From Candidatus Saccharimonadales bacterium (GTDB lineage: Bacteria > Patescibacteriota > Saccharimonadia > Saccharimonadales > 2-12-FULL-41-12), in the NCBI GenBank assembly GCA_041600715.1, contig JBFIJM010000001.1, positions 673,701 to 737,700 on the forward strand: a DNA stretch of 64,000 nt, written 5' to 3'. The first letter of the stretch is position 1. Each line of letters opens with the position of its first letter. The notes under the pieces are model-generated. The model made no database searches. It was not told where the DNA came from and worked only from the letters and a program-made list of their open reading frames with translations. The position numbers and the translations under genes are program-made. Of this stretch, positions 42,032 to 59,393 are shown one piece after another.

Positions 42032-45000
42032 GGTGGCTCACTTTAGTAGTTATAATGGCATCAAGTATTGTAGTTTTTCATCCTTCAGAGGTGAATGCTG
42101 CAGTTGATTACGGCATTAGTCCGACTGAACTACCTGCAAGAACAAACGTACCCAATAACGGTTCTATAGTTGACCCACACCAATATATCAATCTTACAGA
42201 TAGTGAAAATTTTGATGACGAACGCGGTGCTTATCTGCCTGTAACTCAGCTAAAAATTTACGACACATCTTCAAGATCTCAAAAATTTTATATGCAGATA
42301 ATAGATCGACGTGCTTCACCTAAGATTTCATGTCAAGGTTATAAAATTAATGTTAGAGTCCTAGAGTTGAACGGGGTAGAGGGGCCGACTGGAAGATCTA
42401 CGCAAAAAGAGTTCAGAGTCCGTAGTTGTGCTAATTTATCGCCTGAAGCAAGGGCTCAACTACAGAATAACGGTAACGAAGCGCCGAGTGAATTCAATAA
42501 TTATCAAACATATGCAAACGGCAACTACTATTTCAGTTTTGATTCGGGGTGGCTTAATCGTTCAAGCGTGCAAGGCCATGAGAATTTATACACAGGACTT
42601 TTATTAGTTAGAATTGTTCCAGATAATTTTGCAGCAAATAACACCACAACCTTCCATATAAACACTAGTACGGGCAGACTTGGTTTCAGTGGGTATCCCG
42701 GTAATGGAGCGTCCTCAAATGAAGCTCAAAATGGGCCTGTAACCATATACCCTTCTTTGTCTGGTTCGTCATCTGGCGGGGGTAGTCCACCCCCACATGT
42801 AATTAGTCAAATGTTTGGAGTGCCATGTGGGGCTAATGGGGGTAGTGATATAAATAATATGGAAGTTTATTGGGTTGACGACGACACAGTAAATGGCAGA
42901 GCTGCGAGTGTGCCACCACAAGATAGGTATAATATGAGTATTAGGGTATATGAGTTCGGAAAGAATGGATTCTTTCTTAGGGATTTTGCGCCTAACATAG
43001 TAAGGTGGAGCGGTTCAAATAGTTGGGGCTCTACATCTAAAGGTCTTTTGAGGTTTAACGCAAAACCAGGATATAAGTATCGTGTAGATTTCCAGAATGT
43101 GCAGGGAGGAAATGGAATTGGGTTGTATTACCCATTCGATTCCTCGGATTTTAACTTAAAATGCCCATCCACAACTCCTGTATCAACACCGGGGTGTGAT
43201 GCCTTTAGGCATACTATGAAAGTCAGTACTCGTTATAAGTTCACTTTCTTTTATAATAATGGGGTTGCTAGTACTGGGGGCCCGCCAGATGGTAGAAATG
43301 TTGCATCTGGAAACAATTGGACATGGAAGACTTTTAACCAACCAGTTGCACATACAGAACAGAGAGACGGCAATGGTACCAATGTATATGAGTTTAATTA
43401 CCCTATTCCAGCAAGAGACTATGTCATATATATAGAAAGATGGGTGAAGCAAGCGAATAACTCATGGACTTACTACGGAGGTACTGACTCGTCACCAGTA
43501 GGGGATTCTGGGAGGTTCGTAGAAGGAAATTGTTATAACGCTACCTGCGAAATATTTGTTCCGGGTAATGTCCCGTTAGGTGGGGCGAATGAAGTTAAGG
43601 CAGGAGAGGAGTTTGACGTAGTTGCGAGGATACGTAACAATGGTCGCGCACCACTGAACGCGGAATTTAAGGATACTGGGTACGAGTTGTCGGCTACGCT
43701 TGCGCTTGATGGCAAATGGAATGCACCTAATGGTGATTCGTCTGGTAATCTTGCGCCTACAAGAATAGGCGAGGACATACCTTCTGGGCAGTTTAGAGAG
43801 GCTTACTTTACATTAAATGCTCCTAACGATAGAGATAGCCATATAATAACCATGTACCCTGATTATTGGGGACTGCAAGGTCTAGGGCCTGCCTGTCCTG
43901 CCACTGTTAGCACATTCCAACCATACAAATTTGACGCATCAGTCGATACATCATATGACGATCCTGAGAATCCCGTGGATGTAACTTTGCGTAGCACAAT
44001 TACCAAGGCTGGGGTAGTAGATGTTGATAGTGAAGTAACAAGAAATTTCTACCGTAAGCGTGCTGGTAGCTTTGGTAGTATACCTGGCTATAATGGGTCA
44101 GTCTTACCAAATCCACAAACACGAGCATTCATGAACTTTACCTTTGATGATGTATATACAGTAGTGGGACCGAATGTACGTGATGACTCGTATTGTGTAT
44201 ATATAAAACTAGAACGTGGAGAGGGATGGAGGGGTCCCGGAGATTTGTATAGAAATGCACGAGCAACCGAAAAGCATAATTGTGCTCCTGATCTACCGTG
44301 TCCTCCTGGAGATACAACCTGCACCACTCCACCAGTAGTTGAAGATCGTCCATATCTTAGAAACTATGGCGCTGATGTGGCTGTGGGAGGCGGTTTTGAG
44401 GGCGTAAATTGCAGTAGGAATAATGCTGGCATTAAGACATTTACGAATCCGATAGCCCGGCAGATACCGGCTACTGCACCGGTTTCTGATGAACGTAAGA
44501 ATAAAAGTGGCTCAGGTGCTCAACTGGCTACATTGGCACTTGGCGATATAACTGGATTTACATCGGCCTCGATACGGGAAGAGTCGCCTTTCTTACCAAA
44601 TGGGCTCACTTTTGCCAACAACCCTCCCGGTTCTGTAGACGCAAATAATAGTCGAGCGTTTATGGGAGGCAGGATGTCTGGTGACGGCTGGTGTGCGCCT
44701 AACTATTTTGACAGCACACAGTTCCTTGACGGTGATCCGTCCAAGTCTACGAGTACAAGCAATAGTATTAATATTGCTAGTGGATCTGTAGGCACCAATA
44801 AACAAACCGTGATCACTCCACCGAGTAGGGTTACTCTTACTAATACGGGCGCCCAGTACAATAAGCGTCATACCGTATACGTCGATGGTGATGTGTACAT
44901 CGAAAACGACATAAAGTACACAACTTCATGGGCAAGCGTGAGTGAGATTCCTAACTTCACATTGGTTGTTCGGGGCAATATCTATATTAGTCATAATGTC

Positions 45001-45360
45001 AGCCAGCTAGATGGTTTATATATAGCACAGCCAAAGAATGGAGCTGGCGGTAATATTTATACTTGTTCGATTGGAGGTACTGCTCCAGTATCCTCAGTAA
45101 TGTTCGCTAACTGTGGCGCATCAGAAGAGGGCAGGCAATTGACTGTAAATGGGTCATTTATTGCGCAACGGATAGTCCTTAACCGTACCGGCTTTTCTTT
45201 GAGGCACTCAACCTATAAAGAAAAATTTGATACTAGTCGTGCCTCCGAGATATTTAACTTTAGCCCAGAACTTTATTTGTCACCGCCAGTATTTAAATCT
45301 AAAAGTAGCCCAACAAGTGGTACTTACCAGTCGATTACGACGCTTGCACCAATTTTGTAA
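42028..45360 (+). CDS. large secreted protein (1110 aa) with a CARDB-like segment
   Basis: Signal peptide (MRWLTLVVIMASSIVVFHPSEVNA-AV), many Cys pairs and a CARDB-like stretch (GANEVKAGEEFDVVARIRNNGRAPLNAEF). No sortase or TM anchor is present. Confidence 0.75.
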   Translation: MRWLTLVVIMASSIVVFHPSEVNAAVDYGISPTELPARTNVPNNGSIVDPHQYINLTDSENFDDERGAYLPVTQLKIYDTSSRSQKFYMQIIDRRASPKISCQGYKINVRVLELNGVEGPTGRSTQKEFRVRSCANLSPEARAQLQNNGNEAPSEFNNYQTYANGNYYFSFDSGWLNRSSVQGHENLYTGLLLVRIVPDNFAANNTTTFHINTSTGRLGFSGYPGNGASSNEAQNGPVTIYPSLSGSSSGGGSPPPHVISQMFGVPCGANGGSDINNMEVYWVDDDTVNGRAASVPPQDRYNMSIRVYEFGKNGFFLRDFAPNIVRWSGSNSWGSTSKGLLRFNAKPGYKYRVDFQNVQGGNGIGLYYPFDSSDFNLKCPSTTPVSTPGCDAFRHTMKVSTRYKFTFFYNNGVASTGGPPDGRNVASGNNWTWKTFNQPVAHTEQRDGNGTNVYEFNYPIPARDYVIYIERWVKQANNSWTYYGGTDSSPVGDSGRFVEGNCYNATCEIFVPGNVPLGGANEVKAGEEFDVVARIRNNGRAPLNAEFKDTGYELSATLALDGKWNAPNGDSSGNLAPTRIGEDIPSGQFREAYFTLNAPNDRDSHIITMYPDYWGLQGLGPACPATVSTFQPYKFDASVDTSYDDPENPVDVTLRSTITKAGVVDVDSEVTRNFYRKRAGSFGSIPGYNGSVLPNPQTRAFMNFTFDDVYTVVGPNVRDDSYCVYIKLERGEGWRGPGDLYRNARATEKHNCAPDLPCPPGDTTCTTPPVVEDRPYLRNYGADVAVGGGFEGVNCSRNNAGIKTFTNPIARQIPATAPVSDERKNKSGSGAQLATLALGDITGFTSASIREESPFLPNGLTFANNPPGSVDANNSRAFMGGRMSGDGWCAPNYFDSTQFLDGDPSKSTSTSNSINIASGSVGTNKQTVITPPSRVTLTNTGAQYNKRHTVYVDGDVYIENDIKYTTSWASVSEIPNFTLVVRGNIYISHNVSQLDGLYIAQPKNGAGGNIYTCSIGGTAPVSSVMFANCGASEEGRQLTVNGSFIAQRIVLNRTGFSLRHSTYKEKFDTSRASEIFNFSPELYLSPPVFKSKSSPTSGTYQSITTLAPIL

Positions 45361-45482: not shown

Positions 45483-46526
45483 ATGGGTTTGCTGAGTGGT
45501 GTAAATGAGTTTTTTGGTCTCGATATCGGCACGTCGTCTATTCGGGTTGTTCAGCTTACTAATAATCCAACAGGGCCCAGACAGTTACTCCGATATGCCA
45601 TGGCCCCAATTGACGGTAAACTGACCCAATCAGACGCAAAAGCCGACCAACTAAAAGTTGCAGAAAAACTAAAAGAAATTTTATCTCAGGCGCAGATTTC
45701 CACAAAAAACGTAGCTGTTGGGATTCCGTCATCTAGAGTATTCACTACTGTAGTTGATATCGAGAGACTTGGTCATGATGAGCTTGCAAAGACGATTAAG
45801 TTCCAGGCAGATTCATTAATACCAACCCCAGTAGCAGAATCCAAAATCGACTGGGCACAGATAGGTGACTCTCCAAAAGACCCTAATAAAGTAGAGGTTT
45901 TATTGTCTAGCGTGCCAAATGGCTTTGCAGAATCTCGTCTTGACCTATTGGAATCTATCGGTCTCAATGTTATTGCTTTTGAGCCTGACAACTTGGCAAT
46001 GACACGTTCAATCCTGGCTCCAGAAAGTACTGAAGCTCAAATGGTTCTCGATATCGGCAGTAAAAGCACAGATATAGTTATAACGATGGGTGGCTTGCCA
46101 AGACTTACTCGTGCTGTTCCTACTGGGTCCGAGGCAATTGTTAAGTCGGCAATCCAAAACCTTAATGTTGACGAGAAACAGGCTCAAGAGTTTGTCTTTA
46201 AGTTTGGTTTGAGCCAGCAAAAGCTAGAGGGTCAGGTACATAACGCTATTATTGGTACGGTTGATCTATTGTTAACAGATATAGAAAAATCCATTAAGTT
46301 CTTCTTGGCCAGATATAATAATACTAAGATAGAACGGATTGTAATGACTGGTGGGGCGTCTGCCTTACCGGAGTTTCCTCTGTATATCGCTAATAAGTTT
46401 GGCATTAATGTAGAGATAGGTAACGCCTGGCGAAATGTAACATTTAGCGCAGAGCGACAAAATGAGTTAATGGCTGTGTCTAACCACTTTGGTGTAGCAG
46501 TTGGTCTTGCGGAGCGTAGAGAATGA
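45483..46526 (+). CDS. pilM: type IV pilus assembly protein PilM
   Basis: Actin-like ATPase fold. FGLDIGTSSIRVVQL is at the N-terminus and TGGASALPEF near the C-terminus. Confidence 0.9.
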   Translation: MGLLSGVNEFFGLDIGTSSIRVVQLTNNPTGPRQLLRYAMAPIDGKLTQSDAKADQLKVAEKLKEILSQAQISTKNVAVGIPSSRVFTTVVDIERLGHDELAKTIKFQADSLIPTPVAESKIDWAQIGDSPKDPNKVEVLLSSVPNGFAESRLDLLESIGLNVIAFEPDNLAMTRSILAPESTEAQMVLDIGSKSTDIVITMGGLPRLTRAVPTGSEAIVKSAIQNLNVDEKQAQEFVFKFGLSQQKLEGQVHNAIIGTVDLLLTDIEKSIKFFLARYNNTKIERIVMTGGASALPEFPLYIANKFGINVEIGNAWRNVTFSAERQNELMAVSNHFGVAVGLAERRE

Positions 46527-47257
46527 TTCAGTTCAACCTACTACCAGATGTAAAAATACAATATTTGCGAGCAACGTACCGTAAAAGGGTGATTGTCTTT
46601 ATATCAGTTGTGGCATCGATAGCATTTTTGCTAATTTTTGTATTGCTGTTTTTATTTGTGAGGGTCAATCAGCCCGGACACATAAAGAATCTTGATAAAG
46701 ATATTAACTCGGAAGTCTCGACTTTGCAGGCAGTTCCAGATTTAGATCGAATATTAACAATACAGAATCAGCTTAATACCTTACCGGGTCTACATGAAAA
46801 CAAGGTGTTTAGCTCACGGCTATTTGAATATCTCGCTCAGTTAACTCCGCAATCGGCTAGTATTACCAACGCAGATGTGGATTTAGAAGCGTTTACAATT
46901 AGTCTCAAGGGTGAGGCAGATACTTTAGCTACTGTTAATAAGTACGTAGACACTATAAAGTTTACTGAATTTACTGTTGAGGGCGAGGAATCACAGCCGG
47001 CTAAGGCATTTAGTGCAGTCGTGCTTCAGAGTTTTAGCGTAGCAGCGGAAGGCTCATCTGGTGTTACATACCAAATAGACTTTACGTACGAGCCAAAGAT
47101 ATTCGCAAACTCCGCTAAAAAAGGTGAACCAACAGCAAATGCTGTGAAACTTAATGTTCCTAAGATTGTTACCACAAGATCAGAGACTCAGAAACCAGAA
47201 GGTTTATTTAGAGAAAGCACCACTCCAGCACCCGTAACACCAGGAGGGAACCAATAG
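46523..47257 (+). CDS. pilN: PilN-like pilus assembly protein
   Basis: MIQFNLLPD start, a single TM helix and coupling to pilM by a 4-nt overlap. Confidence 0.75.
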   Translation: MIQFNLLPDVKIQYLRATYRKRVIVFISVVASIAFLLIFVLLFLFVRVNQPGHIKNLDKDINSEVSTLQAVPDLDRILTIQNQLNTLPGLHENKVFSSRLFEYLAQLTPQSASITNADVDLEAFTISLKGEADTLATVNKYVDTIKFTEFTVEGEESQPAKAFSAVVLQSFSVAAEGSSGVTYQIDFTYEPKIFANSAKKGEPTANAVKLNVPKIVTTRSETQKPEGLFRESTTPAPVTPGGNQ

Positions 47258-47259
47258 CC

Positions 47260-47940
47260 ATGGCCAGAGCTCAGCTACACATCTCTGCTAAGAAAATTGC
47301 AATAGACAAAGCCAATACAACAGTAGTAGTCGCGGTTGGGATTGCTGTTTTTGTAGTAGTCTTCAGCCTTGTCGCTTCGCGGGCGCTATTAAACCAGAGG
47401 TCCTATCAATCAAGAGTTATAACAGCTAAGCAAGAAACCCTTAATCAACTAAAGAAAAACGTCCAGGAAGTAGAGGGTCTTACGGCATCGTATAAAGAGT
47501 TCGAAGACTCTAGCCAAAATGTCCTCGGCGGATCAGCTAAGGGCACAGCAGACCTTGATGGCCCTAACTCTAGGATTGTGCTTGATGCACTACCAAGTAA
47601 ATATGACTTCCCGGCACTTACAACTAGTATTGATAAGTTGGTATCCGGTAATGGATTTCAGCTTTCTAGTATTTCTGGTACCGATGATGAAATAAACCAG
47701 ACACAAAACGGCACTTCTGCAACGCCTGCATCTGTAGATATGCCTTTTAATCTAGAAGCAACTGTCAGCTCGACAGAAGCAAAAAGGTTTATGGAGCTGT
47801 TTGAGCGGTCTATTCGTCCTGTCCAGATCCAAAAGCTCTCAATTGCCGGACAAGACTCTCAGTTAAAGGTGAGTATTACAGCCAAGACCTACTTCCAGCC
47901 AGGCAAAAACCTAAACCTAAGGGATGAGGTAGTGAAATGA
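47260..47940 (+). CDS. PilO-like pilus assembly protein
   Basis: TM helix, then a coiled coil (KQETLNQLKKNVQEVEGL), then an alpha/beta domain. The gene is in the PilO position. Confidence 0.6.
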   Translation: MARAQLHISAKKIAIDKANTTVVVAVGIAVFVVVFSLVASRALLNQRSYQSRVITAKQETLNQLKKNVQEVEGLTASYKEFEDSSQNVLGGSAKGTADLDGPNSRIVLDALPSKYDFPALTTSIDKLVSGNGFQLSSISGTDDEINQTQNGTSATPASVDMPFNLEATVSSTEAKRFMELFERSIRPVQIQKLSIAGQDSQLKVSITAKTYFQPGKNLNLRDEVVK

Positions 47941-48199: not shown

Positions 48200-49999
48200 A
48201 TGAGTGTATTATCAGCATCTAACCAGAAACAGGTAGAAGATACTCTAGTTGCTGAAAAACAGATTACTCGTGCTGAGTTAGAACGATTAAAACAAGAAGC
48301 AGAAAAGACTACTAAGCCTTTCTTTGAGTTACTTGTCATGGAAGGCCATGTTTCTAACGAAGTCCTGACTAAGACAATAGCTCAGATAAACCGCGTTCCA
48401 TACGTTAATTTATTAGATGCACGTATTGAGCGTGATGTCCTGAGACTACTTTCTAAGGAAGTAGCAGAGCGTTACATGGCCGTACCATTAGGGCAGATCC
48501 AGAATAAACTAGTCGTAGCCATGCTAGACGCTGATAATGTTCAGGCGGTGGACTTCTTATCAAATAGGATTGGTCGACCATTAAAGGTTTATACGGCCAG
48601 CGAAGAGGGTATACGACGTATACTTAAGCAATACGACGAAGATGTAGAAGCCGATGTTCAGAAGGCCATTGGTGTTAAAGTTCAGACCGGAGCCGAGCAA
48701 GCAGTTATCGTGCAAGAGCCGATAATCGATGCGAATTCTAACATTAAGACAATTGTTCAGGACTCGCCCATAAGCAAGGCATTGTCGACTATTTTGGAGT
48801 ATGCAGCGAAGAACAAAGCTAGTGATATTCATATAGAACCACTAGAAAAAGAGCTAAAAATTCGTTGTCGTGTCGATGGTGTACTGAGAGAAATTATGAA
48901 GTTGCCAAAGTCTACAGAACCACCGCTAATTTCGCGTATTAAGATTTTGAGTAATCTAAAAATAGACGAACACCGCATCCCTCAAGACGGTCAGTTTACT
49001 GTATTAGTCGATAAAAAAGCGATCGACCTTCGTATTGCAATCAGCCCGGTAGTTTGGGGCGAGCAAGTAGTTATTCGTCTGCTAGATAAAAGCGGTACAG
49101 CCCTAAAACTAGAAGACATGGGTTATCATGGGCGCGCTCTCAGAACAATCAGAAAAGGCCTAGAAAGTAGCAACGGAATGATCCTGACCTCTGGTCCGAC
49201 TGGCTCAGGTAAATCAACGTCGTTATATGCGCTACTCCAAGAGATCAAGAGCGATACTATTAACATCGTAACCCTAGAAGACCCGGTAGAGTACAAAATG
49301 GATGGCATAAACCAAATTCAGGTTAATGCAGAGGTTGGCTTAACTTTTGCATCAGGTCTTCGGTCTATCTTGCGTCAAGATCCTGACGTCGTGATGGTGG
49401 GGGAGATCCGTGATAAAGAGACTGCTCAATTGGCTGTGCAGGCTGCGCTAACCGGGCACTTAGTCTTTAGCACACTGCATACCAACTCCGCTTCTGGTAT
49501 TCTTCCTCGTCTGCTCGATATGGGGATAGAGCCTTTTCTTATTGCTTCTACGGTAAGGACAGTTATTGGCCAGAGGTTGGTAAGGCGAATATCCGATAAC
49601 AAAGAATCATACACTGCTGACGCTAGTGAAAAGCAGGCAATTGTCCAGAATATTGGTCATCTTTTGCCAACCGCAGAGGATCAGAGAGCATCGTTTGCGG
49701 AGGATCTAGGGTACGAAAGCTTGCCACTTGCCAATGAAAACGCTTATACTTTATACAAAGGTAAAGATAGTCATGAAACACCAGGTGGGTATAAAGGTAG
49801 AATGGGGCTCTATGAGACGTTTGAGGTTGATGAAATGATACAGCAACTAATCTTAAAACGGGCGACAAGTAGCGAGATCCAGAGAGCTGCTCAAGAGAGA
49901 GGCATGATAAATATGCGTCAGGATGGCTATCTTAAAGCACTGGCAGGCTATACAACGATCGATGAAATTAACCGTGTTGCAGCAACGGACAACGCATAA
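48200..49999 (+). CDS. pilB: type IV pilus extension ATPase PilB (GspE family)
   Basis: T2SE N-terminal domain, Walker A (GPTGSGKST), Asp box, Walker B (VMVGEIRD) and His box (GHLVFSTLHTN). Confidence 0.95.
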   Translation: MSVLSASNQKQVEDTLVAEKQITRAELERLKQEAEKTTKPFFELLVMEGHVSNEVLTKTIAQINRVPYVNLLDARIERDVLRLLSKEVAERYMAVPLGQIQNKLVVAMLDADNVQAVDFLSNRIGRPLKVYTASEEGIRRILKQYDEDVEADVQKAIGVKVQTGAEQAVIVQEPIIDANSNIKTIVQDSPISKALSTILEYAAKNKASDIHIEPLEKELKIRCRVDGVLREIMKLPKSTEPPLISRIKILSNLKIDEHRIPQDGQFTVLVDKKAIDLRIAISPVVWGEQVVIRLLDKSGTALKLEDMGYHGRALRTIRKGLESSNGMILTSGPTGSGKSTSLYALLQEIKSDTINIVTLEDPVEYKMDGINQIQVNAEVGLTFASGLRSILRQDPDVVMVGEIRDKETAQLAVQAALTGHLVFSTLHTNSASGILPRLLDMGIEPFLIASTVRTVIGQRLVRRISDNKESYTADASEKQAIVQNIGHLLPTAEDQRASFAEDLGYESLPLANENAYTLYKGKDSHETPGGYKGRMGLYETFEVDEMIQQLILKRATSSEIQRAAQERGMINMRQDGYLKALAGYTTIDEINRVAATDNA

Positions 50000-50014: not shown

Positions 50015-51082
50015 ATGTCAGCTAATATACGGATAGAACTTTTACTAGAAGAAGTCATAAAGAAGAAGGCTTCTGACCTTCATTTGCAGGTTGGGCTTGC
50101 CCCGATCTTGCGTGTAGACGGAGCCTTGGCCCCAATCCAGAACTCGACTGTCTTGACAGAAGAGATGGTAGAATCGCTTATATTCTCTATTCTTGATGAT
50201 GAGCAAAAGCAGATACTACTAAAAGATAAAGAGTTTGACTTTAGCTTTGCCTTTGGCGACCTTGGCCGTTTCCGTGTTAATGCGTTCCATGAGCGTGGCA
50301 ACCTCGCTGCGGCGCTTCGACTGATCCCTAACGAACTACTTAGCACCGAGCAACTTGGTCTGCCAAAAGTGGTCGAGTCATTTGCTAACTACCCCCGAGG
50401 GCTAGTACTAGTAACGGGACCGACAGGTTCTGGAAAGTCCACAACCCTAGCTGCGCTAGTGGACAAGATCAACACCGAAAAAGCCACACATATTGTAACC
50501 ATAGAAGATCCAATTGAGTTTACTCATAAGAGTAAAAAGTCTGTAATCGTTCAGCGTGAAGTTCACTATGATACATATTCATTCTCCGCAGCGCTTCGTA
50601 GTAGCTTAAGACAAGATCCAGACGTTGTTTTACTGGGAGAGATGCGCGACCTTGAGACGATCGCAGCTGCTATTACCATCGCAGAAACAGGGCACTTAGT
50701 CTTTGCGACTCTTCACACAAACTCCGCTGCTCAGAGTATCGACCGTATGATTGATGTTTTCCCACCACATCAACAGCCACAGATACGTGCACAACTTAGC
50801 AATATATTGATGGGTATTTGCGCCCAACGACTTATCCCCACTATTGGTGGTGGGCGAGTAGCAGCCGCTGAGGTTTTGGTGGCCACTCCAGCTGTCCGCA
50901 ATATTATTAGAGAAGGCAAAAGTCACCAACTAGATGCTGTAATTCAAACTGGTGCTGAATTTGGAATGCAATCTATGGACAAGACGCTTGCTTCACTTAT
51001 CCATGCCGGATCTATTACTTATGATGAAGCCCGCAACTTTGCTGTTGATCCAGACGAACTAGATAGATTGATGAGGAGCTAA
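50015..51082 (+). CDS. pilT: twitching-motility retraction ATPase PilT
   Basis: A 355-aa protein with GPTGSGKST, GHLVFATLHTNSA and the PilT signature AVRNIIREGK. Confidence 0.95.
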   Translation: MSANIRIELLLEEVIKKKASDLHLQVGLAPILRVDGALAPIQNSTVLTEEMVESLIFSILDDEQKQILLKDKEFDFSFAFGDLGRFRVNAFHERGNLAAALRLIPNELLSTEQLGLPKVVESFANYPRGLVLVTGPTGSGKSTTLAALVDKINTEKATHIVTIEDPIEFTHKSKKSVIVQREVHYDTYSFSAALRSSLRQDPDVVLLGEMRDLETIAAAITIAETGHLVFATLHTNSAAQSIDRMIDVFPPHQQPQIRAQLSNILMGICAQRLIPTIGGGRVAAAEVLVATPAVRNIIREGKSHQLDAVIQTGAEFGMQSMDKTLASLIHAGSITYDEARNFAVDPDELDRLMRS

Positions 51083-51091
51083 TACTAAGCC

Positions 51092-52315
51092 ATGCTGACT
51101 TTTAGTTACGAAGCAAGAGACCCTGCAACCGGCCAGAAGGTTAAGGCCGAAGTCCAGGCAGATAGCGAGTCCGCGGCAGCGCGCCTAATTCAGGAGCAAG
51201 GACTAGCTCCGCTAGAGATTAAGCCTGTAGGGGTCAGTAACTCAGGAGCATTTCTAAGTAGGATAAAAAACCGGATCAAAACCAAGGAAAAGATTGTTTT
51301 TTCTCGGCAACTTTCTACGCTAATTAATGCTGGCTTACCTCTTGTTCAGAGCTTGCGCAGTGTCAACGACCAGACAGAGAACAAGGCTTTCCGAGTGGTG
51401 ATCAACAAAATTATCTCTGATGTTGAAGGGGGGAGTGCCCTTAGTGTTGCGCTCGCTAAGCATCCCAGGGTCTTTAATAATATTTACGTAAACTTAGTCG
51501 CAGCGGGCGAAGTTTCCGGGAACTTAGACAAAGCTCTAGAGCGTATAGCCTTTCAACAAGAAAAAGACGCCGAAATTACCGCAAAAATTCGTGGCGCGAT
51601 GGCTTACCCTGCGATTGTGATTTTTGTTATGTTGGGTGTTGTTGGGTTTATGATAGTTAAGGTATTGCCTCAGGTAGAGACAATATACAAGGATATGCCG
51701 GGAGCACAGCTACCTCTTATAACCAGGATACTGCTGGCCATATCTAACTTTACTATTCAGTATTGGTGGGTGGTACTTGGCGCTTTGGTCATACTAGGCT
51801 TTGCCACTTCTCGTTATGCTAGAACTGGCCCAGGTAAAGAAGTTATAGATAAAATCAAGATGAGTGCTTGGCCGTTTGGTCCGTTATTTATGAAGGTTTA
51901 CATGGCACGGTTTGCTCGTACGGCTACCACCTTGGTATCTAGCGGTGTGCCACTCATCCAAATGCTAGAAGTAGTAGCTCAGTCTATAAATAATGTCCAC
52001 GTGGAACGTTCTCTTAATAACGCCATCGAAAAGGTAAAAGGTGGAAAGTCACTAGCTGACTCTGTGCAAGGCGACCCTAACTTCTTGGTACTTGTACCTA
52101 ATATGCTAAGGATTGGTGAAGAGTCTGGATCGTTAGAGGACATGCTAGCAAAAACAGCCGATTACTATGAAAAAGAAGTGGATAACCAGATAAAAACCAT
52201 CAGTACTATCATTGAGCCACTGCTTATGGTGATTCTTGGAGTGGTTGCCTTTACGGTGGTCGCAGCGGTGCTTCTGCCTATATATGGTCTTGCTGGCCAA
52301 GACGTAATTCGGTAG
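51092..52315 (+). CDS. pilC: type IV pilus platform protein PilC (T2SS-F family)
   Basis: Two T2SSF repeats (FSRQLSTLINAGLPLVQSL and FARTATTLVSSGVPLIQML) and three TM segments. Confidence 0.9.
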   Translation: MLTFSYEARDPATGQKVKAEVQADSESAAARLIQEQGLAPLEIKPVGVSNSGAFLSRIKNRIKTKEKIVFSRQLSTLINAGLPLVQSLRSVNDQTENKAFRVVINKIISDVEGGSALSVALAKHPRVFNNIYVNLVAAGEVSGNLDKALERIAFQQEKDAEITAKIRGAMAYPAIVIFVMLGVVGFMIVKVLPQVETIYKDMPGAQLPLITRILLAISNFTIQYWWVVLGALVILGFATSRYARTGPGKEVIDKIKMSAWPFGPLFMKVYMARFARTATTLVSSGVPLIQMLEVVAQSINNVHVERSLNNAIEKVKGGKSLADSVQGDPNFLVLVPNMLRIGEESGSLEDMLAKTADYYEKEVDNQIKTISTIIEPLLMVILGVVAFTVVAAVLLPIYGLAGQDVIR

Positions 52316-52410: not shown

Positions 52411-52869
52411 ATGAAAAATCTATCACAAAAGAAAAAAGAAGAGGGCTTCACTATAATCGAAGTCTTGATCGTACTAGCTATAGCTGGTCTAATTATGCTA
52501 ATAGTATTCTTAGCAGTACCTGCATTACAGCGTAATAGCCGAAATACTCAATACAAGAATCAAGTAGCAGGTTATTCTGCAGCAGTTAATGAATGGAGAA
52601 ATAATAACAGTGGTCGTGCGCCCGCAACAGCTGACCTTGCTACAATCAACGCTCTCGCTGCCGACGGTCCATTAACTGAGCCAACTGCCTTGACTACAGG
52701 CGCGCAGACTGGAAATCCAGCTATCGGCACAATGCAAATACAAGTAGGTCTTACATGTTCCACTACTACTGTCGGAGACACTGTTGCAGGCCCTGCTCGT
52801 TCTGTTGCCATACGCTACTCTGTAGAAAACTCTGCAGGACAACCTGTTAAACAGTGTGTTGGTGCGTAA
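52411..52869 (+). CDS. pilA: type IV major pilin (prepilin)
   Basis: The class III signal peptide is cleaved as MKNLSQKKKEEG / FTIIEVLIVLAIAGLIMLIV, with Phe+1 and Glu+5. A C-terminal Cys pair is present. The gene has its own promoter and terminator. Confidence 0.85.
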   Translation: MKNLSQKKKEEGFTIIEVLIVLAIAGLIMLIVFLAVPALQRNSRNTQYKNQVAGYSAAVNEWRNNNSGRAPATADLATINALAADGPLTEPTALTTGAQTGNPAIGTMQIQVGLTCSTTTVGDTVAGPARSVAIRYSVENSAGQPVKQCVGA

Positions 52870-52886
52870 ATAGTATCAAAACCTTC

Positions 52887-52917
52887 AAAAACGGGGCGTT
52901 AAGCCCCGTTTTTGTTT
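52887..52917 (+). terminator. rho-independent terminator after pilA
   Basis: AAAAACGGGGC-GTTAA-GCCCCGTTTTTGTTT is a GC-rich stem followed by a T-run. Confidence 0.85.
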
Positions 52918-52927
52918 GTGTTAATAT

Positions 52928-53776
52928 ATGCTAATGATTATTGGCTCGCTTATACTAGTTGGACTATGTTTTGGAAGCTTTGTTAATGCCCTGGTTTGGC
53001 GAGTGCACAAACAGAGCAGAAGTAATGGATCCAAGTCCAAAACCAGGGATAAAAAATATTCTATAGTCTTTGGTCGCTCCATGTGTACGCATTGTAGCCA
53101 TGAGCTGGGCGTAAAAGATCTATTGCCAGTCATTAGTTGGCTAGCTCTTGGCGGAAAGTGCCGTTACTGCAAAAAGCAGATTCACTGGCAATATCCTGTA
53201 GTTGAGGCACTAACAGCGGTCTTGTTTGTCATTTCATATGTATTCTGGCCCCGAGAATTAACTGGTTACGAGATAGGATTATTTGGGCTGTGGCTAGTGG
53301 CTATAGTGGGGTTCATGGCCTTGATTGTTTACGACCTAAGGTGGATGCTACTGCCTAATAGAATTGTCTTTCCTCTCTACGGTGTAGGGCTTATTACGGT
53401 TATTTTAAGGGTTCTAAAAGATAATTCCTTTGAGCCACTTGCTATGTCTTTGGCCGGTGTCCTGGTGGGCGGAGGGATATTCTATATACTGTTTGAGATA
53501 TCTAAGGGCAGGTGGATAGGTGGTGGCGACGTAAAACTAGGATTCTTGCTGGGAGCACTCGTTGGTACTCCTGTTCTGGCGATGTTTATGCTGTTTTTGG
53601 CGTCAAGTCTTGGCACTTTATTAGCTCTGCCTCTTTTGGCTACAAAGAAGGTCGGCAGAGGAGCACGGATACCGTTTGGACCATTTTTAATTATTGCTAC
53701 ATTGATTACCGTACTCTTTGGTCAAAATATTGTTGATTGGTACCTAGAAATATCGTTGATTACATCTGACGTTTAG
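52928..53776 (+). CDS. pilD: prepilin peptidase / N-methyltransferase (A24 family)
   Basis: N-terminal Cys motifs (CTHCSHEL...CRYCKKQI). The catalytic Asp motifs are VYDLRWMLLPN and GGGDVKLGFLLG. Confidence 0.9.
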   Translation: MLMIIGSLILVGLCFGSFVNALVWRVHKQSRSNGSKSKTRDKKYSIVFGRSMCTHCSHELGVKDLLPVISWLALGGKCRYCKKQIHWQYPVVEALTAVLFVISYVFWPRELTGYEIGLFGLWLVAIVGFMALIVYDLRWMLLPNRIVFPLYGVGLITVILRVLKDNSFEPLAMSLAGVLVGGGIFYILFEISKGRWIGGGDVKLGFLLGALVGTPVLAMFMLFLASSLGTLLALPLLATKKVGRGARIPFGPFLIIATLITVLFGQNIVDWYLEISLITSDV

Positions 53777-53805: not shown

Positions 53806-54603
53806 ATGAGACGTACAGGCACACGTTTGCAATGGTCAAACTCAAGAGGGTACACAATCGTAGAAGTGATGATATTTTTAGTTGTGTCCGGTGCGCTAAT
53901 GGGGTCGGCAATGACAATGATTAGTGGACAAGAAGAAAAAACTCGTTTTTCGCAGTCCGTACGGACTTTTGAGCAAGACATTCAGGATATATTTAATGAT
54001 GTCTCGACTGGATATTATTCTGCTTCAAGCCCAGAGAACGTTAACTTTAAATGCACGCCAGGCGCGTCGGGTAGCGTGTCTGTAACAGCTGGCTCATCAG
54101 AGCAGGGCAGTAACCAAGGCTGTGTATTTTTGGGTAAAATTGTTCAGTTAACTAATGGTAGTGACCAATACTCTGTTTATACGCTCATAAATTCTCGTAC
54201 AGCAGAGACTATAGGGGACATTAAGGGACGTTTGTTAGGTACTGACGCAACAGGTGGGCGCGGGATTGTAGATTCTAGAGAGAACCAAGCAGATCTTGTC
54301 GTAGCAAAGATTATAAGTAAAGCTGACATAACTCGTACCGTCACTGGCTTAGCTCTGATTTCTGACTTTAATGTAACAACTCCAAATGACGGCGTTACAG
54401 GCAATGCATCAAGAGTTACTCTCTACGAGTACACTGGAGGATATTTAAATGATGAGATCACATCTGCTAGCCTGCCATCATCGGCTGGAGTTATCGTATG
54501 CCTAGAGCAGGTTGGTGGCCCCAGGGCATCTGTAGTATTAGACTCTAGAGGTATCCGTTCGGGTGAGACGTCGGTTAATCCGTGGAGCGGGGATTGTAAC
54601 TAA
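53806..54603 (+). CDS. prepilin-type minor pilin
   Basis: The processing site reads ...SNSRG / YTIVEVMIFLVVSGALMG, with Glu+5. Confidence 0.75.
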   Translation: MRRTGTRLQWSNSRGYTIVEVMIFLVVSGALMGSAMTMISGQEEKTRFSQSVRTFEQDIQDIFNDVSTGYYSASSPENVNFKCTPGASGSVSVTAGSSEQGSNQGCVFLGKIVQLTNGSDQYSVYTLINSRTAETIGDIKGRLLGTDATGGRGIVDSRENQADLVVAKIISKADITRTVTGLALISDFNVTTPNDGVTGNASRVTLYEYTGGYLNDEITSASLPSSAGVIVCLEQVGGPRASVVLDSRGIRSGETSVNPWSGDCN

Positions 54604-56108
54604 TGAAGATTTTTAAGAATCAGCGTGGTGACACCATTATGGAAGTTATGATATCTGTTGCCATCCTTAGCCTCATACTCGGCGCGTCGTTTGCGCTAGC
54701 TAATCGTAACTCGCAGGCCAACAGGCAGGCCGAGGAAAGAAGCGAGGCCTATAAGGGGACTGAATCTCAGATGGAATTACTTAAGTCTTTCTTGGGTGCT
54801 AGCTCTACAGCATCATTGCCAGCAGAGGGCTCAAAATTTTGTATGAAAGACGATGGAAGCGGAACTGTTTCGGTGACAGGACTAACTGAGCCCGTTGACC
54901 CTGAGCAGTTTCAAACAAAGATAGAATCTGCCCCCGAGTTATCGGCCTGTAAAAAGGGTGAGTTTTATTATAGCTATATACAGCGTGGAGATACTGCTGG
55001 CACCGACGGGCTAAGTAAAGATACTTTTAGAGTACATACCCGCTGGTACAATGCCTCAGGTACGGGTATAGATGAATCGACAATGGTTCATAGGATTTAT
55101 CCCAACCTAGGCTCCCTAGACGGAGGGTTACTTAATCTGCCAACATGTAGTCCGCATCAATTCATTAATGCTCTAGGCCAATGCGAAAATTGTCCAGCTG
55201 GGGAAGCAAATCCCAGCGGTAATGGAACTGGGTGTACGGAAGTCCCTCCGGAGGTCGAGATTGTTGTCCAAAGACTTAATGACGGGCCAGGCAGGACAAC
55301 AGCCTCTTGTAGTAGTAATGATGTAACTAATGTCCAAAATATACCAGTTAATCTAAGTAGAGCAAGCTACTCCAAAACCATAAACACTAACACGTTATCT
55401 ACTGCATTTTTCTCTAGTGCAGAAAATTTACAGAAAAACACAACCTACTCAATAAGCCCCACATTGCCATTAAGGCACAGCCTGTGCCCAAATCCAGCTA
55501 GTTCTATTACGACAGGAGGCAAAGGTACCGAAATCGCCAAAGGATCTAAGGTGACGATCACACTTAAATATAAGCGTGATTACCCGGCTGTTACACCACT
55601 ACATCGTTGCTATCAGTTCAATACTTTTACAGGAGATAATCGTAGATTTACTAACCATATTTATGTAATTGGCTCTGATAGTAGTATATGTATATCTGGC
55701 ACCAACGGAGGACAGTACGAAGGCGTTATTGGTTATGTGCCGACAGATTGGGTAACAAATAGCACTCCTGTATACGGAGGATTTAACGACAATGATTTTG
55801 ATACTTTTATTACCACTAGCTATTACGAGTATGCACAGGCTTACGTATACGGATGGAACACTGTTGGAAGCCAACCATACAATAGAAATGGTTACTTGGG
55901 ATTCCATTTCTTTGTTAGCGGAGGAGGAAGAAACAATGCAACCTGTAGCGAACCAGATACTATTCCGTTATATCGATGGTGGAGCCCTGGTGTTGGTAAC
56001 CATGTGTATACAACTAGTTTAGGCGAGAATCCCAATTATTATGGAGTAGCAGATGGTGGTGGGAATTTTTATGAAGAAGGAGTGGCTGGGTGCATCTTCC
56101 CAAGCTAA
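54603..56108 (+). CDS. large prepilin-type protein (501 aa) with a Cys-rich module and a triple C-terminal repeat
   Basis: The processing site reads MKIFKNQRG / DTIMEVMISVAILSLILG, with Glu+5. The C-terminal part holds three repeats of a (T/I)P(L/V)(H/Y)-type unit; two contain H(I/V)Y and end in EGV (DUF5648-like), and the middle copy is degenerate. Confidence 0.7.
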   Translation: MKIFKNQRGDTIMEVMISVAILSLILGASFALANRNSQANRQAEERSEAYKGTESQMELLKSFLGASSTASLPAEGSKFCMKDDGSGTVSVTGLTEPVDPEQFQTKIESAPELSACKKGEFYYSYIQRGDTAGTDGLSKDTFRVHTRWYNASGTGIDESTMVHRIYPNLGSLDGGLLNLPTCSPHQFINALGQCENCPAGEANPSGNGTGCTEVPPEVEIVVQRLNDGPGRTTASCSSNDVTNVQNIPVNLSRASYSKTINTNTLSTAFFSSAENLQKNTTYSISPTLPLRHSLCPNPASSITTGGKGTEIAKGSKVTITLKYKRDYPAVTPLHRCYQFNTFTGDNRRFTNHIYVIGSDSSICISGTNGGQYEGVIGYVPTDWVTNSTPVYGGFNDNDFDTFITTSYYEYAQAYVYGWNTVGSQPYNRNGYLGFHFFVSGGGRNNATCSEPDTIPLYRWWSPGVGNHVYTTSLGENPNYYGVADGGGNFYEEGVAGCIFPS

Positions 56109-56116
56109 AATTAATT

Positions 56117-56782
56117 ATGACAAGTAAAAAACGTTTAACAATAATCATTTCAGTCACAATACTTACTGTTGTCAGTGCCGTTGCTTACCTTTTATCCAGT
56201 AGAGAAAACGGCAATAATGTATCAGACTCGTCTCGGAGTGCTGATAAGGACGTGCCTTCACTATGTGAAACTACTAGCGCAGAGAATATTAGTAAGGCTA
56301 TGGGGCGTACATATAAACTTTACGAATCACCAGAAGATAAGCCTGCTCCAGAGTATGAAGCCACGGAGGCAACAGGTCCAGCGCCCGAATTAACTCCACC
56401 AGAGGGTTACGATAGAGGTACAACTCCGAAGCAGGAAAGTAAGTTTGAATCAGATAATTATAAAAACTCTAAAAATCCTAACGTTTCGGAAAACTCTACA
56501 GGTCTATGCGTATATCGGTCTGAGAAGGGCAATGCTGAAGTTTTTGTCTCTAGACTGAACTTTGACAGTGCTGAGCTAGCGAAGAAAAAATTAGATGAAG
56601 ATCAGGGTGTAAAGCGTGAGAGCCTGGATATTAAGGATGGCGGTAAAGCTAGAGTAGTAAAAGATTTTTCTGGTGTAGAGAGGTATGAATTAAGCGTTCT
56701 GGTTGGTAGGGATATATTCACCGTAAGCTTGCCTAAAGAGGATAAAGACAAAGCGGAGAAGTTGATTAATGAAATTATTTAG
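56117..56782 (+). CDS. hypothetical N-terminally anchored protein (non-pilin) within the minor-pilin operon
   Basis: The ATG at 56117 gives MTSKKRLTIIISVTILTVVSAVAYLL. There is no G/FxxxE prepilin motif. The ORF-track start at 56090 overlaps the preceding gene. Confidence 0.5.
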   Translation: MTSKKRLTIIISVTILTVVSAVAYLLSSRENGNNVSDSSRSADKDVPSLCETTSAENISKAMGRTYKLYESPEDKPAPEYEATEATGPAPELTPPEGYDRGTTPKQESKFESDNYKNSKNPNVSENSTGLCVYRSEKGNAEVFVSRLNFDSAELAKKKLDEDQGVKRESLDIKDGGKARVVKDFSGVERYELSVLVGRDIFTVSLPKEDKDKAEKLINEII

Positions 56783-57422
56783 ACGACAGAACTCTGCGGT
56801 TAGCTCGGATCAACAAGGCTTTACGATACTTGAACTACTGATTGCTACCACTGTCTTTAGTGTGATCCTACTAATTGCAACAACCGGAATTATTGCTATT
56901 GGCAAGCTTTACTACAAGGGCATTACAGAGGCACGTACGTCTGATGCAACGAGAGTTGTAATGGAGGAAGTTTCGAGAACGATTCAGTTTAGTAAAGGAA
57001 CAAGGGTGAGTGGTCATAGCTTTGCGCCAGATACTAACATTACACAGTTCTGTGTTGGCGATAGACGCTATACGTTCATGATTAACCAACAAGTTACAGA
57101 TGATAATGCCATAGGTTTGCGCTCACAGACAAAAGCCCCAAGTGATGCCTGCGCGTTAGATGATCCGTTGGTGGGCGATCAGGTGTTGGCCAGCAATATG
57201 AGGCTTTTAGATTTTAGAGTTGAATCTAACCCAACAACTAATAATTTCACTGTAAATATTAAGATTGCATATGGAGATGATGATTTACTTAATCTTTACG
57301 ACGATGATGGTAATAGAAGCTCAATACCGCTTAGCGACGGTCAATGTAAGTCGGGTATTGCGGGTAGTAGCTTCTGCGCCGTAGCACAGCTAGACACGAC
57401 AGTTAAACAACGCTTACAATAG
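56769..57422 (+). CDS. prepilin-type minor pilin (PilW-like)
   Basis: The processing site reads ...SSDQQG / FTILELLIATTVFSVILLIA, with Glu+5. Confidence 0.7.
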   Translation: MKLFRRQNSAVSSDQQGFTILELLIATTVFSVILLIATTGIIAIGKLYYKGITEARTSDATRVVMEEVSRTIQFSKGTRVSGHSFAPDTNITQFCVGDRRYTFMINQQVTDDNAIGLRSQTKAPSDACALDDPLVGDQVLASNMRLLDFRVESNPTTNNFTVNIKIAYGDDDLLNLYDDDGNRSSIPLSDGQCKSGIAGSSFCAVAQLDTTVKQRLQ

Positions 57423-57435: not shown

Positions 57436-58455
57436 ATGAATTATCCAATACAGTACAAAAAAAGTCAGTCAGACCAACAAGGTTTTGTGGCGATCATAGT
57501 AACGGTGACTCTGATGCTGGTTATGACACTAATAGTCTTGGCAATGTCACAAAATTCTAACAGAGAACAACGACAATCGCTGGATCGCCAGCTAAGCGAT
57601 CAAGCATTCTACAATGCTGAGTCGGGTATTAATGATATTTCTAGTTATTTGTATGCTAATCCAGGATCAGATATAGATAACGAAGGCGATTGTACTGTAG
57701 CAGGATTAGACCCTAATATAGATGGCCCAGATGGTGTTAATAAATACTCTTGCATTACCTATAATAAGGCTCCTAAGACATTGGTGTATGACGAGCTGTC
57801 TGTGTCAGCTCCAAAGGTATTCCCGGTTAGAGGCGCAGATTCCGCGGGTAATCCTGTAGCTATAGGGTCACTTACGATAAGTTGGGACGATTCTACTGAC
57901 CGAGATGTCATAATAAATGATGCCCAATGTAATGCCTCTACTCTCTCGACTACCTGTAGTTACGGTGGCGTTAGATTACAACTTATTCGTTCTTTAACTA
58001 GTAGAGATCTAATTAGAAACTCGGCATTCATTGCATATTTACTGCCTAGTACGTCCGGAGATACAGAAATTATTGCAGGACCAAAGCAGGGTGAACTAAA
58101 GGCAGTTAACTGTAGTTCAGCAATTAATAACCGGAGATGCTCTATAACAGTAAGAGGGCTTAACGAGAATAATCTGTATGCAACTATTCAGTCGCTTTAT
58201 AGACCAACCAACGTTACGATATCTGCTACAGACTCTGCAGGGACTAAACTTCGATTAAAAGATGCACAGATAATGATAGACTCAACCGGAAAGGCAAACG
58301 ACATACTTCGACGCATTAGAGTGACTGTACCGGCCTCGGCCCAGTATGATCATCCAGGATTTGGATTGCAGTCCAAAGAGTCTTTGTGTAAGCTCCTAGT
58401 TGTTAAAGAGGGGCAAGTTAGAAACGAAGACCCTGCTGAATGCCCAATTGATTAG
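57436..58455 (+). CDS. PilX-like pilus protein (pilin-like N-terminus lacking Glu+5)
   Basis: The processing site reads ...SQSDQQG / FVAIIVTVTLMLVMTLIVLAMS. This shares the SDQQGF leader with the preceding gene, but position +5 is Ile. Confidence 0.55.
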   Translation: MNYPIQYKKSQSDQQGFVAIIVTVTLMLVMTLIVLAMSQNSNREQRQSLDRQLSDQAFYNAESGINDISSYLYANPGSDIDNEGDCTVAGLDPNIDGPDGVNKYSCITYNKAPKTLVYDELSVSAPKVFPVRGADSAGNPVAIGSLTISWDDSTDRDVIINDAQCNASTLSTTCSYGGVRLQLIRSLTSRDLIRNSAFIAYLLPSTSGDTEIIAGPKQGELKAVNCSSAINNRRCSITVRGLNENNLYATIQSLYRPTNVTISATDSAGTKLRLKDAQIMIDSTGKANDILRRIRVTVPASAQYDHPGFGLQSKESLCKLLVVKEGQVRNEDPAECPID

Positions 58456-59393
58456 TCTGTTTTTCTGTGGAACTTTTCGTGAATTTTCTTTAGGTGTGGA
58501 TCTGTAACGTGGGTATATATTTGGGTTGTAGCAATATTGCTATGACCAAGCATTGCCTGAACAGAGCGAAGGTCTGCTCCGTTCATTAGCAGATCTGTCG
58601 CAAAGCTATGCCGTAGTGTATGAGGGCTTACATGTTTTGTTATGCCAGCAAGTAGTGCATATTTAGCGACCATTCGCTGAACACTACGTGGTGTAAGACG
58701 TAGATAGTTGCCAGAGAAGTCTGGTTTCTTGTGTCCACCAATCCTCACAAAAAGAGCAGGGGATGCGTCTTTCCTCTGTTGGATATACTGCTCGATCCAG
58801 TCGGCAGATTGATCGCTAATAAAGACCGGACGATCTTTTTGTCCTTTACCTCGTACCATAAATTCTTTGCGCTTTAGGTTGATATGATCTTTGTTGAGAC
58901 CACACAATTCTGATACACGCAGACCACTAGAATATAGTAATTCTAAAATTGCGCGATCACGTAGTCCGGCAATGGTCGAAGTATCCGGCTCGTCAAATAA
59001 GCGATGTAATTCTTCTGGACTCAAGAATGTCACTTGGATACGCTTGGTACGCGCCAGTTCGACTTTCTCTGGGCTCATAGCAGTTATGTCGCGTTTTGCG
59101 CAGTATTTAAGGAAACTGCGGAGAGCGATTAAGTGATAATTTTGTGTGCTTTTTTGGAGTTCGTCACTAGTGTTAGTGCCGAGACGATTTAACCATAGTC
59201 TCCATTTGCGGATAAGCTCTGGTGTGATGTCGGTTACTTTAATATCGCCAGCATAGTCTACTAACCTAGTAAGGTAGTGGTGGTAGTTTGCAATGGTTTT
59301 TTGTGATCTGTTTTGCTCGATTTCTAGATACTCCAGAAAATCGACAATCAAGCCTTGTAAGTGCATACGTTTATTGTAGCCCACCCGTTCCAT
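58452..59393 (-). CDS. tyrosine site-specific recombinase (XerC/XerD family)
   Basis: SAM-like N-terminal domain. Catalytic residues lie in ARDRAILELLYSSGLRVSEL, HTLRHSFATDLL and LGHSNIATTQIYTHV. The 3' end overlaps the last pilus gene by 4 nt. Confidence 0.85.
   Translation of the reverse strand: MERVGYNKRMHLQGLIVDFLEYLEIEQNRSQKTIANYHHYLTRLVDYAGDIKVTDITPELIRKWRLWLNRLGTNTSDELQKSTQNYHLIALRSFLKYCAKRDITAMSPEKVELARTKRIQVTFLSPEELHRLFDEPDTSTIAGLRDRAILELLYSSGLRVSELCGLNKDHINLKRKEFMVRGKGQKDRPVFISDQSADWIEQYIQQRKDASPALFVRIGGHKKPDFSGNYLRLTPRSVQRMVAKYALLAGITKHVSPHTLRHSFATDLLMNGADLRSVQAMLGHSNIATTQIYTHVTDPHLKKIHEKFHRKTD

Follow-up and report, generated by a model that had tools for sequence, protein, structure and literature searches.

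How the ultrasmall epibiotic Candidate Phyla Radiation (CPR) bacteria recognise their hosts is largely unknown, and the leading candidates are type IV pili (T4P) together with lectin-like minor pilins (PMC11623550). In Streptococcus sanguinis, the lectin-module pilin PilC has been characterised experimentally and belongs to a tip-located minor-pilin complex that promotes adhesion (Shahin 2023, PMC9934059). In Nanosynbacter lyticus TM7x, a PilX2 deletion mutant shows a host-binding defect, and host binding is inhibited by rhamnose (PMC11623550). Here we analysed a stretch of 64,000 nucleotides from a Candidatus Saccharimonadales bacterium (GenBank assembly GCA_041600715.1, contig JBFIJM010000001.1, positions 673,701 to 737,700; hereafter the window), in which a T4P locus encodes a 501-aa protein, the target of this study, with a pilin module resembling PilV and GspI at its N-terminus and a DUF5648 (PF18885) domain at its C-terminus. 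We favour, with somewhat more confidence than doubt, a five-step reading in which this modular minor pilin presents a glycan-binding module in the tip complex for attachment to a host. The locus supplies a concrete candidate for host recognition, in the form of a PilV-like pilin with DUF5648.

As in the case of PilC and PilB of S. sanguinis, the target combines a small class III signal peptide pilin module with a grafted C-terminal effector module, and the two organisms share a monoderm-type envelope. The target is unlike PilC and PilB in carrying DUF5648 instead of a ConA-like or vWA module, in its extra cysteine module and β-sandwich, in the Asp at position +1 and in that its structure is a prediction. 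With PilX1 and PilX2 of TM7x, it shares the lineage (Saccharibacteria) and a lectin-like minor-pilin C-terminus for host binding, predicted in our case (PMC11623550), and the composition of the window locus is that of the TM7x 'T4P locus one' (PMC11623550). However, the TM7x modules are a β-jelly-roll (PilX1) and a seven-bladed RCC1-type propeller (PilX2), and their carriers are PilX-type pilins without a predicted PilD signal, whereas the carrier of DUF5648 is a PilV/GspI-like pilin with G↓D...E (the arrow marks the cleavage site).

PilV and GspI of the FimU-PilVWX and GspHIJK tip complexes likewise take the second slot in a four-pilin operon and have a small module, which measures about 150 aa in most orthologues of the target, and GspK and PilX, like the last pilin of the target's operon, lack Glu at +5. 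The target departs from PilV and GspI by Asp in place of Phe/Met at +1, by a C-terminal extension of about 330 aa and by scores below the family cut-offs, and its operon departs from theirs by an extra gene for a non-pilin membrane protein. DUF5648, in turn, is a C-terminal module on secreted proteins in BSAP-2 and BSAP-3, in glycoside hydrolase family 70 (GH70) α-glucanotransferases and in a GH25 endolysin. The pilin-borne domain is unlike those in that it forms a separate subclade, marked by four conserved cysteines, an 'RCYQ' motif in blade 1 and degeneration of blade 2, and in that its carrier is a pilin and not a toxin or an enzyme.

In Saccharibacteria, modular lectin pilins are an idea that others have put forward and in part tested (PMC11623550). 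The initial annotation of this locus knew of no described case of this module on a pilin stalk. The novelty it suggested was overstated, as lectin and adhesion modules on pilins are already described and widespread (PMC8179133, PMC9934059); only the combination of DUF5648 with a pilin was not found in the searchable literature mentioning DUF5648. Neither DUF5648 nor PF18885 occurs in 32 kb of the supplement text of PMC8179133, a portion too limited to be conclusive. New here are DUF5648 as a pilin module, a PilV-like G↓D pilin rather than PilX as the carrier, and evidence for interchangeable cassettes on one conserved pilin.

The pilin carries one three-bladed DUF5648 domain

In a Pfam search with the whole protein, residues 329-501 of the target matched DUF5648 with E=4e-12 and 47 bits against a gathering threshold (GA) of 25, and the isolated C-terminal domain reached 51.2 bits. 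The window contains only this one DUF5648 open reading frame (ORF). The C-terminal 177 aa align blade-for-blade with canonical DUF5648 domains, the blade motif of which is P-x-Y-R...D/N-H-x-Y-T...E...G-[YW]-x-x-E-G. The His residues of blades 1 and 3 (H352 and H467) are invariant in 26 sequences, and blade 2 no longer has the canonical Arg or His. The peptides quoted in the initial annotation were all found where it had placed them in the ORF; what it described as a triple DUF5648-like repeat is, however, one DUF5648 domain of three blades and not three domains.

Pairwise Smith-Waterman comparison of the three units inside the target was not significant, units 1 and 3 being marginal, with a score reached by 91 of 2000 shuffles, and the other two pairs below significance, and the repeat claim therefore rests on profiles and structure. 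Blade profiles built from 15 pilin-type C-terminal domains and compared by HHalign gave 93.6% for blades 1 and 3 (E 3e-8), 88.5% for blades 2 and 3 (E 3e-7) and 28.6% for blades 1 and 2 (E 1e-4). The AlphaFold2 (AF2) model of the C-terminal domain, obtained with a 26-sequence alignment, has a predicted local distance difference test score (pLDDT) of 88 and a predicted TM-score (pTM) of 0.85 and shows three successive ββαβ units, a pattern repeated in the full-length AF2 model. The three similar C-terminal modules anticipated in the initial annotation are thus present in the model, and they are real as homologous blades by profiles and AF2, though not by pairwise comparison within the protein. 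DUF5648 has been described from AlphaFold models as (β3-α)3, a three-bladed β-α propeller (PMC11299179; 10.1101/2025.01.06.631476); we liken the three ββαβ units of the target to this fold, both sides of the comparison being models.

A search of BFVD with the C-terminal-domain model returned two unnamed viral proteins (E 4e-6 and 1e-3), which are uninformative. PDB sequence searches were run with the protein and with profiles of the C-terminal domain and of the pilin module; a match to ribosomal uS5m at E 0.006 was judged spurious, as were all matches of the C-terminal-domain profile, and matches to geopilin, which cover the N-terminal helix only, were not regarded as meaningful.

DUF5648 has been documented at the C-terminus of BSAP-2 and BSAP-3, which target O-antigen and in which it is the receptor-binding domain (10.1101/2025.01.06.631476), as an auxiliary domain on GH70 glucanotransferases (PMC11299179) and as the C-terminal domain of a GH25 endolysin, to which a putative role in cell-wall binding is ascribed. 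By analogy with these secreted proteins, which act on surface glycans, the domain of the target would also be linked to glycan recognition. The same tip-exposed modular pilin could instead bind a non-glycan ligand, be it a host surface protein, the cell's own envelope or, in aggregation, other cells: S. sanguinis has in PilB a modular pilin that attaches to proteins via its vWA module (PMC8179133), the glycan role of DUF5648 is deduced from its contexts, and the pilin subtype has diverged as a subclade of its own, in which two disulfides are additional and blade 2 is degenerate. Nevertheless, we consider a non-glycan ligand unlikely, as the documented DUF5648 contexts are all glycan-related and the modules that take its place on this pilin elsewhere are of carbohydrate type.

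The N-terminus is of prepilin type with Asp at +1

The target N-terminus reads MKIFKNQRG↓DTIMEVMISVAILSLILGASFALA, with Gly at -1 (G9), Asp at +1 (D10) and Glu at +5 (E14), in agreement with the prepilin site with Glu+5 and an unusual Asp+1 noticed in the initial annotation. A hydrophilic leader ending in Gly is thus followed by a hydrophobic tract with Glu+5, and the site is in register with those of the neighbouring pilins, G↓FTIIE, G↓YTIVE and G↓FTILE. G9, D10, T11 and E14 are invariant in 17 homologues as well as in 54 short orthologues. In the Pfam scan, for which the initial annotation had named N_methyl (PF07963) and DUF5648, only the latter proved significant; N_methyl scored 19.6 bits on the target against a cut-off of 21.2, and TIGR02532 scored 13.3 bits against 16.3. 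The orthologues scanned were likewise all under the pilin-motif cut-offs, the members of the family, target included, scoring 15.9-19.6 bits for N_methyl and none reaching 21.2.

Asp+1, the codon of which lies at 54630-54632 of the window, is fixed in the Saccharibacteria PilV-like family (G↓DTIxEV), and we infer that this conserved residue is the cause of the sub-threshold pilin-motif scores. Asp+1 is a family trait: when fusions were sought by their C-terminal domain only, a search on which the N-terminus has no influence, 13 of 13 had G-D-T at the site. Mutagenesis of Pseudomonas aeruginosa PilA by Strom and Lory in 1991 is said to have found the +1 residue tolerant for cleavage, so that Asp+1 is no argument against processing, and the target is presumably cleaved by PilD after Gly9. 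Surveys that look for domain architectures by way of the pilin motif, as the InterPro-based one does (PMC8179133), would probably miss this family, which stays under the N_methyl threshold, presumably through its Asp+1.

The full-length AF2 model has a mean pLDDT of 74.7. Its pilin module, with strands at 123-128, 141-149 and 156-164, is of moderate confidence (block pLDDT 63-84) and predicts a lollipop fold, in which α1 packs on the β-sheet. The Cys-rich module of the initial annotation was confirmed as four cysteines at aa 182-211, where the AF2 model places short β-hairpins; across 17 homologues, C182 does not vary and C194 is kept in at least 90%. Together, the pilin module (residues 1-170) and the non-T4P-specific DUF5648 (329-501) make the target a modular pilin sensu Raynaud et al. 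2021.

The Cys module, the β-sandwich and the neighbouring 221-aa protein matched no family in Pfam, and an impression of the Cys module as Ephrin_rec_like/GCC2-like was dropped because Pfam gave no family. Foldseek searches of the PDB with the full-length model brought up only low-TM matches to proteins with Ig-like domain chains (Gram-positive sortase pilins, TIE protein), which we rejected as generic β-sandwich similarity. The β-sandwich spacer is kept in P0003-P0013, and in other fusions it is replaced by PKD, InlB B-repeat or SdrD_B-like spacers. Asp-rich repeats are a further spacer variant of many long forms. These linker repeats, of the form 'CxDGxDNDGDGxxDxxDPxC' and placed between the pilin module and the C-terminal domain, were seen in P0015, P0017, P0031, P0035, L007, L014, L017 and L029 and resemble calcium-binding motifs; the target has its CxxC-type Cys module in the same place.

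The pilin module belongs to a PilV/GspI-like family of Saccharibacteria

Retrieval by the motif [RK]GDTI[MVL]EV yielded 161 relatives, and 79 species-representative loci (L001-L079) were examined, all 79 of them from metagenome-assembled genomes (MAGs) of Saccharibacteria or Patescibacteria or from MAGs labelled uncultured bacteria only. Short forms of 125-190 aa, which end where the pilin module of the target ends (...YRxY), account for about 60 of the 79 loci, and long forms of 256-549 aa for about 17. When 54 short orthologues were compared with NCBIfam at a reporting threshold of E<=0.01, as distinct from the curated cut-offs, PilV was the commonest match (47 of 54, best E 4.6e-10), and GspI and ComGE were matched by 29 and 23, respectively. 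These matches, together with the gene order, support a PilV/GspI-like core minor pilin as the likely identity of the target's pilin module. Formal membership is not claimed because the target itself scores far below the curated cut-offs, with 14.6-16.6 bits for PilV (TIGR02523, cut-off 52.2) and 12.8 bits for GspI (TIGR01707, cut-off 44.35).

The ComGE matches, weak as they are (E 0.0022 for the target), raise the question of a competence-pilus subunit, the extension of which would aid DNA capture in a role like that of ComGE, ComZ or ComP. In Saccharibacteria, which are naturally competent, T4P have been suggested to take part in DNA uptake (PMC11623550). We hold a competence subunit to be very improbable: the ComGE matches cover the N-terminal helix only and, with 18-20 bits, stay far under the cut-off of 49, no link of DUF5648 to nucleic acids is known, and the alternative cassettes are of carbohydrate type.

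A further alternative is that the target acts mainly as a core priming or structural minor pilin, to which the extension is accessory, for example as a bulky retraction stop at the cell wall or as a spacer or shield that has no specific ligand. We find this rather unlikely, because the cassette is kept as a disulfide-bearing, distinct subclade in at least 14 clusters, which argues for a specific function, and because lectin-, lyase- or CBM-type modules replace it elsewhere at sharp junctions. On its side are the orthologues, most of which have about 150 aa and no extension, which places the conserved function in the pilin module, and the finding that in TM7x the pilins of the homologous locus could not be deleted (PMC11623550).

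DUF5648 is one of several exchangeable C-terminal cassettes

A word-index homologue search with the C-terminal domain alone found no match, and an exhaustive profile search with five pilin-type C-terminal domains as the query was used instead, covering 1.84 billion representatives. As a result, 5659 representatives matched at E<=1e-3, and a pilin N-terminus of the form G↓DT..E was found in 13 of the best 150 of these 5659 matches, P0015 being the 14th. The frequency of the fusion, a question raised by the initial annotation, thus comes to at least 14 sequence clusters, as judged from these N-termini, and to none of the 79 species-representative loci. Scored with the subtype profile, the pilin-borne C-terminal domains reached 108 bits or more and no other DUF5648 domain exceeded 75 bits, and this gap makes the pilin-borne domains a distinct subclade, in which C336, C363, C448 and C497 are invariant.

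Comparison of close relatives places sharp junctions between shared and unshared sequence. The fusion P0002, with DUF5648, and P0011, with a bulb-lectin-like end, are 62% identical over residues 1-232 and have unrelated C-terminal domains; between the target and P0007, identity is 43% up to residue 322 (from residue 1), and the two are unrelated thereafter. Other members of the family carry a Polysacc_lyase module (PF14099, 81 bits, in the L006 orthologue at 7983-9347), a weak CBM60-like module (L017, 24.3 bits against a cut-off of 28.2), a weak B_lectin (P0017) or a glycine-rich domain of the ALK_LTK_GRD type (L034). By these alignments the C-terminal domain is an exchangeable cassette on a conserved pilin, and the other carbohydrate-related modules on the same pilin probably tune target specificity. 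One conserved minor pilin thus bears different carbohydrate-type cassettes across lineages, and DUF5648, whose 5659 representative clusters at E<=1e-3 make it a large family, gains a further context that points to cell-surface glycan recognition.

The Polysacc_lyase module on the L006 pilin could be either enzymatic or ConA-like. An enzymatic module that modifies or degrades host-envelope polysaccharide at the tip may also be envisaged for the target, since modular pilins with predicted enzymatic modules exist (PMC8179133) and one orthologue has a lyase domain. However, neither a catalytic activity nor an active-site motif of DUF5648 has been described, and in GH70 enzymes, BSAPs and the endolysin catalysis or pore formation falls to a separate domain, next to which DUF5648 has an auxiliary or targeting part, which makes an enzymatic role of the target's own module highly unlikely.

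The commonest cassette of the long forms, an undescribed module that has no Pfam family and sits where the target has DUF5648, contains many Trp, Tyr and His residues and usually ends in Cys-Pro-x; it forms the C-terminal ~110-130 aa of L001, L002, L003, L004, L007, L014 and L015 and is also carried by P0003-P0010, P0012 and P0013. Another recurrent cassette, with a W-x-N-D...Y-D-A-N end (...W(L/V/Q)ND.W.PGVYDAN...), occurs in L005, L008, L013 and L017, in the last of these twice. P0101 (599 aa) carries the pilin-subtype DUF5648 on a PilX-like N-terminus, RRG↓NAILFSLLI, which lacks Glu+5, and has an SdrD_B-like spacer. This protein suggests that the DUF5648 cassette has moved between different pilin carriers.

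A proposed mechanism for host attachment

We then consider the favoured reading, in which the target presents a glycan-binding module at the pilus tip, step by step. The prepilin would be anchored in the membrane via its hydrophobic α1, and the adjacent prepilin peptidase would cut after Gly9. The PilV/GspI-like module would then join the other three minor pilins of the operon in a priming complex that ends up at the pilus tip, where the disulfide-stabilised linker and the β-sandwich spacer could hold the three-bladed DUF5648 away from the fibre. DUF5648 would bind a surface glycan of the host bacterium, and PilT-driven retraction would finally draw the epibiont onto its host. Our analysis shows the domain architecture, family relations, operon context and cassette exchange; PilD cleavage, tip location, glycan binding and a role in host attachment are inferred. 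The candidate tip adhesin of the initial annotation is retained as a candidate, its adhesion and tip location being presumed; the label is reasonable because of the PilV/GspI-like module, the second operon slot and the glycan links of DUF5648.

Several points weigh against this mechanism. Blade 2 lacks the conserved Arg and His, so that any threefold binding site is degenerate. The target misses the N_methyl and TIGR02532 cut-offs, and its Asp at +1 is unusual. The PilV/GspI assignment draws on sub-threshold matches and gene order, and the glycan role of DUF5648 is deduced from the contexts in which the domain occurs. Foldseek found no match in the PDB for the C-terminal-domain model (best E 0.63, TM <=0.24), and PDB sequence searches with the target protein and the C-terminal-domain profile gave nothing meaningful. 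The fusion is rare, with a DUF5648 cassette in 0 of 79 species-representative loci. Finally, the corresponding locus of TM7x (T4P-1) has been tied to twitching motility and essentiality, and the host-binding phenotype was mapped to the other pilus, T4P-2 (PMC11623550).

A broader proposal, which we regard as speculative and rather doubtful, is that the G↓DTIxEV PilV-like pilin is a general Saccharibacteria carrier of exchangeable receptor-binding cassettes (DUF5648, bulb-lectin-like, polysaccharide-lyase-like, CBM60-like and the W/Y-rich module), and that the cassette sets which host bacteria can be attached to. If this were true, cassette swapping on the pilin would be akin to the swapping of phage tail-fibre tips, the host range of uncultured CPR bacteria would be partly readable from one gene, and a ligand class would be assigned to DUF5648 for the first time, within a pilus.

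The pilus locus and neighbouring genes

Table 1 Features of the target gene and its surroundings (positions in the window)
Feature	Coordinates	Strand	Details
Membrane protein upstream of pilM	41519-42031	+	170 aa; no Pfam match
Protein directly upstream of pilM	42028-45360	+	1110 aa; Sec-type signal peptide (…SEVNA↓A); no Pfam match
PilM	45483-46526	+
PilN	46523-47257	+
PilO	47260-47940	+
PilB	48200-49999	+
PilT	50015-51082	+
PilC	51092-52315	+
Putative major pilin	52411..52869	+	152 aa; G↓FTIIE
Terminator-like hairpin	52886-52914	+	strong, GC-rich; 12-bp stem, then T-run; directly 3' of the major pilin gene
Prepilin peptidase PilD	52928..53776	+	A24_N_bact and Peptidase_A24 domains (102 and 54 bits)
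Minor pilin 1	53806..54603	+	265 aa; G↓YTIVE; weak GspH-like match
Modular minor pilin gene (target)	54603..56108	+	501 aa; includes stop codon; ATG start
Leader peptide	54603..54629	+	aa 1-9, MKIFKNQRG; Gly-1 at end; read from sequence
PilV/GspI-like pilin module	54630..55112	+	aa 10-170; α1 helix 10-66 and β-sheet; conserved C80, C116; from AF2 and orthologue ends
Four-cysteine mini-module	55146..55235	+	aa 182-211; CSPHQFINALGQCENCPAGEANPSGNGTGC; C182, C194, C197, C211
β-sandwich spacer domain	55245..55577	+	aa 215-325; C236, C295; AF2 block pLDDT mostly 87-96
DUF5648 blade 1	55587..55757	+	aa 329-385; TPLHRCYQF...NHIYV...YEGVIGYV; C336, C363
DUF5648 blade 2	55758..55955	+	aa 386-451; TPVYGGFN...DTFITTSYYEY...GYLGFHFF; C448; degenerate
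DUF5648 blade 3	55956..56105	+	aa 452-501; IPLYRWWSPGVGNHVYTTS...YEEGVAGCIF; C497; nearest canonical motif
Single-pass membrane protein	56090..56782	+	about 221-230 aa; no family
Minor pilin 3	56769..57422	+	217 aa; G↓FTILE
PilX_N-type minor pilin	57436..58455	+	339 aa; G↓FVAII; no Glu+5
XerC/D-type tyrosine recombinase	58452-59393	-	convergent

The T4P locus of the window is complete, with PilM, PilN, PilO, PilB, PilT, PilC, PilD and five pilin-type N-termini (Table 1), so that the target is encoded together with a prepilin peptidase and the assembly machinery. The pilD gene lies two genes upstream of the target, and its product is the presumed processing enzyme. The hairpin behind the major pilin gene probably separates high pilA expression from pilD and the minor-pilin operon. 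The latter runs from the GspH-like pilin at 53806 through the target and the membrane protein to the pilins at 56769 and 57436 (PilX_N, no E5). As in an H-I-J-K-type operon, the target is the second of four minor pilins, the last of which lacks Glu+5, and this order is kept in related loci; in its position and its missing Glu+5, the last pilin resembles GspK and PilX. Gene order is conserved around orthologues with 30-34% identity (L080, L082) and in the complete Saccharibacteria genome L050. The start codon of the target and the stop codon of the pilin gene upstream share nucleotides in the sequence ATGA, which suggests translational coupling of the two.

The membrane protein gene among the minor pilin genes overlaps both of its neighbours, and L080 and L082 have a gene of 200-243 aa in the same slot. 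The XerC/D-type recombinase gene overlaps the last minor-pilin gene by 4 nt; since this arrangement recurs in L080, L082 and probably L050, we regard it as a conserved neighbour and not as the sign of a mobile element. Of the two genes upstream of pilM, that for the 1110-aa protein may encode a surface or adhesion protein tied to the pilus locus.

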